A stretch of DNA of 64,000 nucleotides from Shigella phage ESh20. Every line of letters begins with the position of its first letter. Positions within the stretch are counted from its first letter, which is position 1. A program made the position numbers and the translations under genes. The notes beneath the pieces were generated by a model. That model was not told the origin of the DNA. It saw only the letters and a program-made list of their open reading frames with translations, and did not search any database. The stretch lies in sequence record ON528730; one strand, 5' to 3'. Positions 22,270 to 25,869 of this stretch are shown here, piece by piece.

Positions 22270-24648
22270 TTATGCAGTTCTTACCCAAGCCATTAATTTA
22301 ATGTAAGTGTTAAGAACACTGAATGCTGCACCAGAACCAGTTGCACCAGTGTTACCACTGAATGTATGGTTGTGAGCACCAATACCTACACCGTGACCGT
22401 GAGCACCTACCCAACTTGTTCTTCCTGTCCAAGTTCTTGATGCGTAGAAGTTAACTGGTGTACCATAAGTGAACTGTGAACCAGTGTAACCTCTAGACGC
22501 TTGTGAACCTGAGATAGCAAACGCCCCACTTGCTGTATAAAAGCTGTTTGCGTCACTTCTGAAGAAACCAAAGTCACCAGAGATTTCCATGTTACCTCTG
22601 TCATGGTCGTGAGCACCTTGAGCGTCTGTGTACTTAGTACCATAATCAAAGGTAGTGGTTGTTCCAGAGAAGCTGTGAGTGTGCGCAGGGATATGACCAA
22701 CACTTAATGCAACTGTATCAGCACCACCAAGCCCTTTCACATCGGAACCATTTGCAGAACCAATTCTAATGGTTCTGTTTGCACCCTCTGTCAAGTAAGT
22801 CCAAGTAGTGCCTGGGAAAGCTGTATTTGGGTTGACATTAGAAGCAAAGAACGTCACAATACCAACTGGATACACTTTCTTAAGGTCTGTAGAATCAGTT
22901 ACCGCAGAGGCAATACGTTGGTCTACTTCAGCCTTGGTGTAAGCACCAAGTTCAGCAGGTGTAGGTTTAGCCTTATCTGTATAGATTTTAGACCAAAACT
23001 CTTCAAAACCAAAACTGTCCCTTGCCGTTCTATAGTAGATTCCACCATTTTTGTATTCGAACCTAAGCTGTGCAGAAGGTGTGGATGCGCCAATCCCAAG
23101 GTACATTTGGTAAACTAAGTGAGTTGAACCACCACTTGAACTTGTAACATTGTACAAACCTGTTTTTGCATTCCAAGCAACACCTGTTTCATCACCGACT
23201 TCGGTTCCCGTTCCAGATACACCAGACAACATATATCTTGAGTTTGCAGCAGATTGTGTGTAGTATCTTGAGTCAAAGTTTGACCAATCTGTAGGCTGAA
23301 CCTGACCGGTTACTGATACACTTCTGTTGAACATGAAAGTATCAGCAATTTCTAACTGAACACCACCGCTTGAGTAGTTATACAGGAATAGAGAATTTGG
23401 TCTACTACCTTCACCGTTACCAACATACCAACGTCTGTTGCCGTCTGCATTAGCACCAACAATATACAGTGGTGAATTAGCTGTCCCACTTTGCAATGTG
23501 AAAGCCGCATCTGTAGTAACAATAGTTTGTGGGTTAGTAAAAACGTTTGCAGCATTAGTTCTTGCAAGAACGTTCGTTAAAGAGCTTGGAACATATCTTG
23601 TATCAAAGTTTGCAAAGTCACTTGGTTTTACCTGACCAGATACATTAATAGCTTTGTTAAATGAAAACTCTGTAGCAATTTTCAAGTTAACATTTGTCAT
23701 CTGGTTTGCTAAAACAATCTCAGACTGCGTACCATCTGGTTGACCCACATACCAAGCACCTGTCCCAGCACTGTTGTAACCACGCATAAATAATGCAGCA
23801 TTCTCTGTAGCCGCTCTTAAGTTAAGTGCATTTCTATCTGCAATAACATAAGTCTTCCCGTTGAAGTTGTTAACCCCAACAAAGTTATTACTTGCATTAA
23901 GTCTTGCAAATCTCTGGTCAGCAGCAGTCTGTGTAAAGAATCTTGCATCAAGGTTGTTCCAGTTATTAGGCTGAACCTGACCATTGATTTCAAAGTTCTT
24001 GTCAACACTAACAGAGTTTGTACCAAGAGTCAACGTAGCACCTTTGCTGTTAACTAATGTAACATCAGTACCAGAAGTCAAGTTACCAACTGTGAATCTC
24101 AAAGCATTATTTGAATCTCTTGCTTCAATATATGCTCCACCATCTGGTAAGATGCTTTTAAGTGTTAAACCAACACCGTTGATATTAATGATTTGTCTTG
24201 CCAAGAAGGTATTTTCAGTTTCCTTCATAGCATATCTTGCATCATTTTCAGTATTAGTTCTCATACCTAATTCATTAGGAGATGGTTTATTAAGTGTGTG
24301 ATAAACTGTTGCAGACCTTGTGGCATCATTTACAGTTAATCTTAAAGCACTTGCATTAATTCTAAAGGTCTTGGCAGTGTCACCGAGAATAACTTCAGAA
24401 GAACCTGTTGGGTCTAATAAGTCTTTTCCACCGTATCTTAATTTGACGATGCCAAGATTCCCTGTCATATCCCCACCAGTTAGTTGTAAGAATCTTTCTA
24501 GTTTGAAAGAGGCAAGGAAATTTGCATAGGTCATTTTACGGTCTTCATCACCTAGCATATCAGACCTTTTGATAATTCTTAGGTGAAGTAAATCTTCTGA
24601 GCGAACTGTATCAATACTGTTTAGCTCACTTAGCTTATATTCAGCCAT
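22270..24648 (-). CDS. Tail fibre protein with His-x-His-rich C-terminal tip
   Basis: 792 aa; internal repeats NLDARFFTQTAADQRFARL / NFDTRYVPSSL / NFDSRYYTQSAANSRY; C-terminal HTHS, GAHDHD, GAHGHGVGIGAHNHT motifs. Confidence 0.75.
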   Translation of the reverse strand: MAEYKLSELNSIDTVRSEDLLHLRIIKRSDMLGDEDRKMTYANFLASFKLERFLQLTGGDMTGNLGIVKLRYGGKDLLDPTGSSEVILGDTAKTFRINASALRLTVNDATRSATVYHTLNKPSPNELGMRTNTENDARYAMKETENTFLARQIININGVGLTLKSILPDGGAYIEARDSNNALRFTVGNLTSGTDVTLVNSKGATLTLGTNSVSVDKNFEINGQVQPNNWNNLDARFFTQTAADQRFARLNASNNFVGVNNFNGKTYVIADRNALNLRAATENAALFMRGYNSAGTGAWYVGQPDGTQSEIVLANQMTNVNLKIATEFSFNKAINVSGQVKPSDFANFDTRYVPSSLTNVLARTNAANVFTNPQTIVTTDAAFTLQSGTANSPLYIVGANADGNRRWYVGNGEGSRPNSLFLYNYSSGGVQLEIADTFMFNRSVSVTGQVQPTDWSNFDSRYYTQSAANSRYMLSGVSGTGTEVGDETGVAWNAKTGLYNVTSSSGGSTHLVYQMYLGIGASTPSAQLRFEYKNGGIYYRTARDSFGFEEFWSKIYTDKAKPTPAELGAYTKAEVDQRIASAVTDSTDLKKVYPVGIVTFFASNVNPNTAFPGTTWTYLTEGANRTIRIGSANGSDVKGLGGADTVALSVGHIPAHTHSFSGTTTTFDYGTKYTDAQGAHDHDRGNMEISGDFGFFRSDANSFYTASGAFAISGSQASRGYTGSQFTYGTPVNFYASRTWTGRTSWVGAHGHGVGIGAHNHTFSGNTGATGSGAAFSVLNTYIKLMAWVRTA

Positions 24649-24693
24649 TTATAAATCCTCTTTCTAGGGGCTGTGTAGCCCCTTATAAAATAA

Positions 24694-25869
24694 TTACGCA
24701 GTTCTCTTCCAAACATATACAACATAAGAAGGTTGCTCAATATTAAATGCTTGTCCAGCACCAAATGCACCAGTTGTACCTGAGTGAGTGTGCTCAGAAG
24801 ATTGAACTGTCACAGTACCTGAGTGTCCATGTGAACCAATTGCAACGCTGTGTCCATGTGCTCCGATATACACACTGTGAGAGTGGTTACCACCAACTGA
24901 AGAGTTAACGTTGAAGGTATGTGTGTGAACCCCATCAAAGTCTGTATATGACGCATTACCAACACCTGCATCAGCCGTTGCCGTAATAGCGTTTACACCA
25001 CCCCTGTCAGAACCCCTCAATGGAATCCTGTGGCTGTGACTACCAGCACTGCTTACAGAACCATTAACGTTATGAGCGTGGCTTCCAGAGTCGTTTGTGG
25101 CCTTAGAACCATAATCAAAACTTGATGTGCTCTTAGTTCCATAGTCAAAGCTAGAAATTACTACTGTTGCATTATGGGAGTGTCCACCACCAGTTAACAA
25201 CACAGAGTGTGTGTGACTTGGAATGTTATTTTGTGTAAGTGTTACAGTAGCAGAACCAAATACTGATTCTACAGGTCTTGTATCTGTATCATAACCGACA
25301 AGAGACCTTCCTTTAGAAACTAACTCCCAAGTACCACCACAAAGTAAATATGTAGATGGGTTTGCAGGGTTAACTGACAAATGAATAGTACCAATTGGAT
25401 AGCTATTCTGGATAGCTCTATATAAAGCATTCACAGCTTTTGCAGTAGCATACTTATCAGCATCTTCAGAGTAAGAGTTTGAATATGTCCAGTTTTGAAT
25501 ATTAGACAAACCTACTTGAATCTTGTTAGTGTTGTGAGGGTTATTCTTGTCATTAATGTGATTCTGGATAAGAGCATTAACTTCATCACTTGATAGAATA
25601 TTAAGGTTCTGCCTAGCCTCTTCAACACTAACCACGTCTGACAAGTTATTAGCAGCCACTAATTGGAGTGCGTTAACAACATTACCAAGTTCTACGTGAA
25701 CCTTTGTAACACCGTGTGGGTTATTTCTTAAAGATGCGTGTGGAGCAAGTAATTGCTCAAGTGTGCATCGTTTATCCTCAATACCTTGCTTAAGGTGAAA
25801 GATATCACTTAAATCAATAGGCAACGAGGCTTGAGGTAATGCACTAATTTGAATTTCACCTACTGGCAT
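24694..25869 (-). CDS. Tail fibre protein (second fibre, related C-terminal tip)
   Basis: N-terminal repeats [16 protein letters not shown] / [16 protein letters not shown]; C-terminal HxH repeats; C-terminal end (...VWKRTA) similar to fibre 1 (...AWVRTA). Confidence 0.7.
   Translation of the reverse strand: [391 protein letters not shown]

Follow-up and report, generated by a model that had tools for sequence, protein, structure and literature searches.

Within the stretch of Shigella phage ESh20 DNA analysed here (sequence record ON528730; 64,000 nucleotides out of a genome of ~88 kb, referred to here as the window), positions 22270–25869 contain exactly two open reading frames, both on the minus strand. 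The upstream gene encodes a protein of 391 residues (24694..25869) and the downstream gene, which follows after a gap of 45 nucleotides, a protein of 792 residues (22270..24648). Both are annotated as tail fibres in Shigella phage Sf13, and both match tail fiber families of PHROGs (phrog_2097 for the 391-residue protein, its best PHROG match, with an E-value of 5e-131; phrog_4277 for the 792-residue protein, 1338 bits). A preliminary description of this DNA, made from its letters alone, had named two tail fibre genes in this interval, and its coordinates are exact. The two proteins, referred to below as the short and the long fibre, are very likely to form the short and long homotrimeric side fibres of a Mooglevirus, each combining a related N-terminal anchor with a tip of the T4 gp37 type.

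The fibre region is 98.1% identical in DNA to that of Sf13 and 95.6% identical to that of Sf14 over its whole length, and identities of 95–97% are found with members of Mooglevirus, a genus of Felix O1-like myoviruses in the Ounavirinae, that include Sf14–Sf19 and related phages of Escherichia and Shigella. The adjacency of the two genes downstream of wedge and platform genes, the lengths of their products and the high identity to described members are those of the short/long fibre pair of the Ounavirinae. On the basis of gene order and reported length, the counterparts of the short fibre are Sf13 gp123, Sf14 gp52 and Bas63 gp26, and those of the long fibre are Sf13 gp122, Sf14 gp53 and Bas63 gp27.

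Domain boundaries in both fibres are those of our own alignments rather than of the primary gp37 structure paper, and conservation was read from alignments of 45 homologues per family (A1 for the short fibre, A2 for the long fibre). At the N terminus of the short fibre is a predicted baseplate-binding anchor (residues 1–45, 25735..25869, mean pairwise identity 0.72) containing the motif EDKRCT, its role being taken from the Sf14 (PMC11821841) and Bas63 (PMC12609058) papers. The shaft (residues 46–152, 25414..25734) is composed of two NNPH..TK..VGL repeats and helices, as judged from sequence and AlphaFold secondary structure, with the number of repeats varying in some homologues. Next is the N-terminal part of a collar of the gp10/gp12 type (residues 153–221, 25207..25413), which ends in IPSHTHS and leads into a putative ascending needle strand (residues 222–280, 25030..25206) with FDYG(T/S)K repeats and His-x-His (HxH) motifs at residues 230, 264 and 278. 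This strand aligns to PDB 2XGF (E = 4e-25), the crystal structure of the T4 gp37 receptor-binding tip (Bartual et al. 2010). Between the ascending and descending HxH strands is a gap-rich block of alignment A1, the hypervariable head (residues 281–312, 24934..25029), a putative receptor-contacting distal end whose mean pairwise identity of 0.11 compares with 0.44–0.72 in every other segment. The descending strand (residues 313–362, 24784..24933), likewise aligned to gp37, carries HxH motifs at 315, 329, 338, 347 and 360.

The last 29 residues (363–391, 24697..24783) form a C-terminal strand predicted to complete the collar: they match the C-terminal end of the Pfam profile Gp10_C, Y385, W387 and R389 are invariant, and PYITVYRWIRIA, with which gp10 ends, can be aligned to the corresponding end of A3, a related long-fibre-tip profile. 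Because the Gp10_C match (PF21939, 139 profile positions, 63.5 bits) spans residues 155–390, the collar domain of the short fibre is split by an insertion of ~100 residues. Over residues 146–363 the tip matches 2XGF (T4 gp37 residues 785–1026) with an E-value of 4.2e-25 and 49.6% identity over 121 residues. The AlphaFold monomer places strands at 222–274 and 315–365 on either side of a low-confidence stretch (283–312), which fits a hairpin, and the pattern at 281–312 is what would be expected of a head at the far end of a doubled-back needle.

The long fibre begins with a predicted anchor of the same kind (residues 1–60, 24469..24648, mean pairwise identity 0.85), containing the motif EDRKMT. 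Its shaft (residues 61–476, 23221..24468) comprises three repeat domains of the gp37_trimer, T7 gp17-pyramid or T4 gp34-rod type. Pfam PF20744 (gp37_trimer) matches the shaft three times (E = 2.8e-45), the long-fibre family profile matches T7 gp17 (PDB 4A0T, E = 2e-4), and Foldseek with the shaft model, in which the repeats have predicted local distance difference test (pLDDT) scores of 75–88, retrieves T4 gp34 (PDB 5NXF, E = 5e-3) and 4A0T (probability 1.0). After the shaft comes a domain shared with the phage Mu tail fibre S (residues 477–587, 22888..23220; Pfam gp37_C, PF12604), supported by sequence and by fold: residues 478–587 score 74.4 bits against PF12604 at a cut-off of 22.5, and the domain matches PDB 8JU3 with E-values of 7e-23 alone, 6.6e-26 as a family profile and 1e-6 in Foldseek.

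The remainder of the long fibre parallels the tip of the short one. The N-terminal part of the collar (residues 588–658, 22675..22887), which ends in IPAHTHS, was assigned from Gp10_C (33 bits with the isolated module and 26.3 bits with the whole protein, at a cut-off of 27) and from its hhalign match to the short-fibre collar. It is followed by a short ascending needle segment (residues 659–682, 22603..22674; TTTFDYGTKYTDAQGAHDHD) with an HxH motif at 680, a 65-residue head without histidines (residues 683–747, 22408..22602; RGNMEISG...SGAF...FYASRTWTG), a short descending segment (residues 748–761, 22366..22407; GAHGHGVGIGAHNH) with HxH motifs at 750 and 759, and a C-terminal collar strand (residues 762–792, 22273..22365, mean pairwise identity 0.87; GSGAAFSVLNTYIKLMAWVRTA) that aligns to the C terminus of the short fibre. 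Both needle segments align to gp37, and the tip matches 2XGF with an E-value of 5.8e-5 alone and 8.1e-11 as a family profile. The likeness to the T4 gp37 receptor-binding tip that had been proposed for both proteins is borne out, each tip being a sequence homologue of the iron-binding structure 2XGF. Predicted structures lacking a metal-binding needle fold had been named beforehand as a refuting outcome; the AlphaFold monomers do not resolve a trimeric needle, and the homology to 2XGF together with the collar–needle–head fold reported for both Bas63 fibres (PMC12609058) supports the proposal.

Nine HxH motifs are present in the short fibre (residues 219, 230, 264, 278, 315, 329, 338, 347 and 360) and four in the long fibre (656, 680, 750 and 759), all of them within the last ~200–240 residues. 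They divide into four ascending and five descending motifs in the short fibre and two of each in the long fibre. The preliminary description, in which ‘fibre 1’ is the downstream 792-residue gene and ‘fibre 2’ the upstream 391-residue gene, quoted HxH strings that are all present in the two proteins, as are the similar C-terminal endings that it gave (...AWVRTA and ...VWKRTA). When the C-terminal modules were shuffled 20,000 times with the same histidine content, the nine motifs of the short fibre compared with a mean of 1.4 (reached in 0% of shuffles, p < 5e-5) and the four of the long fibre with a mean of 0.35 (reached in 0.015%, p = 1.5e-4). The histidine pairs, at which conservation peaks in both families, are either invariant (H230 and H232, H347 and H349 of the short fibre; H750, H752, H759 and H761 of the long fibre in A2) or at least 90% conserved (H278 and H280 and the remaining descending pairs of the short fibre; H680 and H682 of the long fibre).

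A needle rich in glycine, serine, threonine and histidine could in principle accumulate HxH motifs as a by-product of low-complexity repetition, with no metal binding in this phage. The needle segments are indeed compositionally biased and repetitive (FDYGTK and GxHxHxV repeats), and HMMER reports a high bias for the 2XGF match. We consider this reading very improbable, as the histidines are invariant while the residues between and around them vary among the homologues, the motif count lies far above that of shuffles with equal histidine content, and the homologous motifs of T4 gp37 are reported to coordinate iron along the needle (summarised in PMC12609058). An excess of HxH arising as an artefact of composition was ruled out by the shuffles and the histidine conservation.

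The two tips are homologous to each other as well as to gp37. Residues 589–792 of the long fibre align, along the full extent of both modules, with residues 153–391 of the short fibre at 28% identity (BLASTP, E = 7e-17), an alignment whose failure had been set beforehand as a refuting outcome, and hhalign of the two family alignments gives a probability of 99.8% and an E-value of 6.6e-30. The likeness is unevenly distributed. The N-terminal part of the collar scores 89 between the two fibres, compared with 39 and 25 to gp37, and the C-terminal strand scores 63, compared with 10 and 23; the needle segments are about equally similar among short fibre, long fibre and gp37, and the heads cannot be aligned. 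Outside the tips, the N-terminal anchors share a weak local match (DIFHLK..EDKRCT..LLA in the short fibre and DLLHLR..EDRKMT..FLA in the long fibre). This distribution fits, and does not prove, a history in which a whole fibre gene was duplicated long ago within the lineage and needle and head were exchanged later. Of the ‘duplicated but diverged tip’ in the preliminary description, the homologous modules stand and the duplication is a possibility; greater closeness to each other than to gp37 is confined to the collar and the C-terminal strand.

Separate acquisition, or repeated recombination, of a widely circulating collar–needle module would explain the same likeness by common ancestry of the module, with no duplication in place, and we put its chance only a little below even. 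Considered by itself, the short-fibre tip gives a better score with gp37 (49.6% identity over 121 residues, 92.8 bits) than with the adjacent long fibre (27.7% over 242 residues, 63.9 bits). A total of 684 phage records contain the tip module, T4-like gp37 and lambda Stf among them, and for the long-fibre tip 947 cluster representatives are retrieved at E ≤ 1e-3. In Silverhawkium the short fibre is 78–98% identical per 50-residue block (88% overall), with the long fibre at only 42–70% over residues 351–600 (42–58% at residues 351–450), and Citrobacter phage Moogle has the other long-fibre tip class. The short-fibre head of Moogle also differs, and the heads of Shigella and Citrobacter phages are not the same. 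Set against independent acquisition are the N-terminal collar part and the C-terminal strand, both clearly closer between the fibres than to gp37, and the anchor motif common to the two proteins.

Variation within the long fibre is concentrated in two blocks, of which the head is one. The other is residues 351–450 (23299–23598) in the third shaft repeat, where 55 of 100 positions vary among near relatives (87–95% identity), more than in the head; this looks like a mosaic block in the shaft. Similarly unexpected variability of shaft repeats is reported in the Bas63 paper (PMC12609058).

By tip class, the 120 closest long-fibre homologues comprise 106 with four HxH motifs and the His-free head and 12 with six HxH motifs and another head, which is more variable. 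In distant fibre proteins with 2–19 HxH motifs, the conserved motifs of the His-free type (RGxMxIxG, GAF and FxASRxWxG) are found again. No solved structure for this head was found by sequence, and the A3 profile, built from 14 diverse members, matched only gp10 collars and the collar and needle part of PDB 8KEC. Two metagenomic fibres, P0108 (458 residues) and P0112 (536 residues), carry 17 and 19 HxH motifs, respectively, around a head of the same His-free type; judged from these counts, they would have needles that greatly exceed in length the seven-motif needle of T4 gp37.

A tblastn search with T4 gp38 and gp57A gave nothing significant in the 64-kb window (best E = 0.077), and a chaperone of the Tfa type was detected neither beside the fibre genes nor elsewhere in the window, the adjacent small genes belonging to PHROGs of unknown function. 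The authors of the Sf14 study likewise found no homologues of the Mu chaperone, and both fibres there are single-protein (PMC11821841). A 66-residue open reading frame at 8556–8756 on the minus strand was considered as a gp57A candidate and dropped, as it has no similarity to gp57A. It is conserved (64 residues in phrog_4469, function unknown), enriched in charged residues, free of Cys, Pro, Trp and Tyr, coiled-coil-like, and of gp57A-like composition. We tentatively propose, as a joint possibility that we regard as rather doubtful, that the His-free head is a distinct, widespread and uncharacterised fold mounted on needles of 2–19 HxH motifs, and that both gp37-like tips fold without a chaperone of the gp38, gp57A or Tfa type. 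If folding is indeed chaperone-free, the collar–needle frame would be a self-assembling scaffold useful for host-range engineering.

The sequence features suggest the following architecture, for which the genes, homologies, motif conservation and variability come from this analysis and the trimeric state, needle, metal binding and position on the virion are carried over from homologues. Each fibre would be a homotrimer anchored by its N terminus, the long fibre on the 99-residue platform protein encoded upstream and the short fibre on a wedge protein, and in the free virion both would be folded back along the sheath. That both proteins are present on the virion as fibres is likely because they are nearly identical to those of Sf14. 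At the base of each tip, the chain would contribute to a collar of the gp10/gp11/gp12 type, pass outward as one strand of a trimeric six-stranded β-needle, turn in the distal head and return as the second strand, with the last ~30 residues completing the collar. Inward-facing HxH pairs of the three chains would form stacked six-histidine metal sites (Fe2+ in T4 gp37) that rigidify the needle. By sequence count, the short fibre could hold up to nine such sites below its 32-residue hypervariable head, and the long fibre, with a much shorter needle, four sites below its 65-residue His-free head of a conserved family.

The distal heads are predicted to carry the receptor-binding surface, and are likely to be the receptor-contacting parts. 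The receptors are probably core structures of lipopolysaccharide, the receptor type reported for this phage group (PMC11821841). Unrelated heads make it probable that the fibres differ in the structures they recognise, and the dual receptor specificity suggested in the preliminary description is a reasonable hypothesis. The fibres may be used one after the other, as are the long and short fibres of T4, or as alternatives.

It might also be that just one fibre serves as an adhesin proper and that the other is mainly structural, a role that would best suit the short fibre with its gp10-like domain: a baseplate pin, a lever or a sheath-binding element that holds the fibres retracted or transmits the trigger. 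T4 gp10, to which the collar is homologous, belongs to the baseplate and is not an adhesin, which points in this direction, as do the name ‘baseplate wedge subunit and tail pin’ that the Moogle record gives to the short fibre and the position of both fibres against the sheath in the free virion. Of the two fibres, however, it is the short one that matches the gp37 receptor-binding tip more strongly (E = 4e-25), and no segment of either protein varies more than its head (pairwise identity 0.11), the signature of a host-contacting surface; the Sf14 authors, moreover, conclude that the gp10-like domain serves host attachment (PMC11821841). A mainly structural role for one fibre is improbable.

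Several observations weigh against two gp37-type tips with receptor-binding heads. The long-fibre head is fairly conserved inside its class (pairwise identity 0.49), less variable than expected of a rapidly evolving adhesin. The AlphaFold2 monomer of the long fibre has a mean pLDDT of 55, falls below 50 over the tip (residues 580–792) and is usable only for the shaft, and in the monomer model of the short fibre the tip ranges from 40 to 87, with the head at ~40. Fold searches with these monomer models did not retrieve 2XGF for the tips and found only the gp10/gp11 collar, weakly, at the low confidence of the tips. Lastly, in the Sf14 paper the gp10-like part of gp52 is assigned to the attachment end, and its gp37/C24-like part to a position ‘in the centre of the fibre’ (PMC11821841). 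Our alignments support a different layout for the Mooglevirus proteins, the one described for Bas63, in which the gp10-like domain is the split collar at the base of the tip and the gp37/C24-like part lies mid-sequence but would be distal in space.

The fibre genes are part of a minus-strand cluster in the order J-like wedge protein (489 residues), second wedge protein, 99-residue protein, short fibre, long fibre, 64-residue membrane protein and 124-residue holin-like protein. This order matches that of Sf13, and the cluster converges on a thymidylate synthase gene on the plus strand. Directly upstream of the short fibre gene is that of the long-fibre platform protein (25872..26171), the 99-residue product of which matches PDB 9NDY chain S, the ‘LTF platform protein (gp025)’ of the solved Bas63 baseplate, with a phmmer E-value of 1.3e-54; this is the protein on which the Bas63 long fibre is mounted (PMC12609058). 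The adjoining baseplate wedge protein (26171..27028; phrog_4017, baseplate protein) has 285 residues if it starts at the ATG at 27028. The listing of open reading frames gives a TTG at 27067 (298 residues), which overlaps the upstream gene; we favour the ATG because phrog_4017 aligns residues 14–298 to positions 1–285 and because the Sf13 annotation is 858 nucleotides long. The J-like wedge protein (27031..28500) corresponds to the Sf13 protein annotated as baseplate J-like (pfam04865), and Bas63 wedge 2 likewise has 489 residues.

In the gap of 45 nucleotides between the fibre genes, a hairpin, GGGGCT-acac-AGCCCC (24667..24682, minus strand), is followed by an AAGAGG ribosome-binding site, both read from the sequence. 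The hairpin has no T-run and was not called in the terminator scan; in the Moogle record, a terminator annotation occupies the corresponding position. A weak terminator and an element that stabilises RNA are both conceivable roles for the hairpin. Counts of promoter-like and terminator-like sequences between the two fibre genes show no excess over shuffles.

Downstream of the long fibre on the minus strand are the genes of the 64-residue membrane protein (21989–22183, phrog_402) and the 124-residue protein (21615–21989, phrog_4038), the latter a holin in the annotation of relatives. The order fibre, small gene, holin loosely resembles that of T4 genes 37, 38 and t, and the 64-residue protein has no similarity to gp38. 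Between the holin-like gene and the thymidylate synthase gene is a terminator-like hairpin readable on both strands (21587–21610; AAGGCTCC...GGAGCCTT). Elsewhere in the window, 26 tRNA genes are clustered on the minus strand at 45612–50644; they cover most amino acids, including tRNA-His(gtg) and those for Ser, Gly and Thr, and are typical of the Ounavirinae.

Tail fibre tips decide which bacteria can be infected, and are thus relevant to phage therapy and to host-range engineering against Shigella and Escherichia coli. Papers of 2025 on the same genus and a sister genus already contain the arrangement of two fibres, the gp37-like tips with HxH needles and the idea of two receptors, and the finding is therefore real but ordinary, the Sf14 and Bas63 papers having described it. 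The present analysis adds the HxH counts of nine and four, a map of the split collar in window coordinates, the hypervariable head at residues 281–312, the two tip classes of the long fibre and, for the short fibre of Sf14, a reading other than the one in the Sf14 paper. Of modest residual interest are, besides the differing motif counts, the conserved family of long-fibre heads without a solved structure and the apparent absence of fibre chaperones from the window.

The closest described system is Sf14 (Subramanian et al., Commun Biol 2025; PMC11821841), in which gp52 (391 residues) and gp53 (792 residues) were both detected in particles by mass spectrometry. It shares genus, lengths and gene order with the phage described here, with 95.6% DNA identity across both genes. 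Cryo-electron microscopy of Sf14 shows two sets of fibres, 430 and 630 Å long (gp53 being the 630-Å fibre), docked and folded back along the tail, and different receptors were proposed for them (PMC11821841). The Sf14 paper discusses HxH motifs for the central tail needle only (PMC11821841), whereas here they are mapped on both fibre tips.

In the sister genus, cryo-electron microscopy and AlphaFold 3 of Bas63 (JohannRWettstein, Felixounavirus; Sci Adv 2025, PMC12609058) describe gp37-like tips of collar, HxH needle and head on both fibres, with the chain doubling back. Bas63 gp26 and gp27 likewise measure 430 and 630 Å and bind the baseplate through N-terminal domains that are related to each other (PMC12609058), and a homologue of the platform protein is also encoded just upstream here. 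The reported HxH counts for the short and long fibres of Bas63 are seven and six (PMC12609058), compared with nine and four here: the two extra motifs of the short fibre are the collar-proximal HTHS motifs at 219 and 360, and the long fibre belongs to the class with the His-free head rather than to the six-HxH class.

More distant comparisons share parts of the tip. Homology to the T4 gp37 tip (2XGF) extends across collar, needle and flanks, and seven of the nine HxH motifs of the short fibre align with the seven of T4; the head of gp37, in contrast, is unrelated to the heads here, and the present fibres have the longer C-terminal collar strand. In T4, gp37 makes up the distal quarter of a jointed fibre of four proteins and needs gp57A and gp38 to fold, whereas the fibres here are single-protein. 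The C-terminal domain of T4 gp10 and the gp11/gp12 collar (PDB 2FKK; PF21939) have the frame YPxG...W...GG...LP.H.H ... AF....Y....W.R.A in common with both tips, but gp10 has neither the needle insertion nor an HxH array and is a baseplate component, not a fibre tip. Phage Mu S (8JU3) is homologous to residues 477–587 of the long fibre; what comes after this domain is a small, chaperone-requiring tip in Mu and the collar–needle–head module here. Finally, tblastn with the short-fibre tip matches lambda Stf (37.7% identity, E = 1e-23) and many T-even gp37 genes, and lambda Stf and other fibres with gp37-like needles differ from those described here in having different shafts and attachment domains and in being accompanied by tail fibre assembly proteins.

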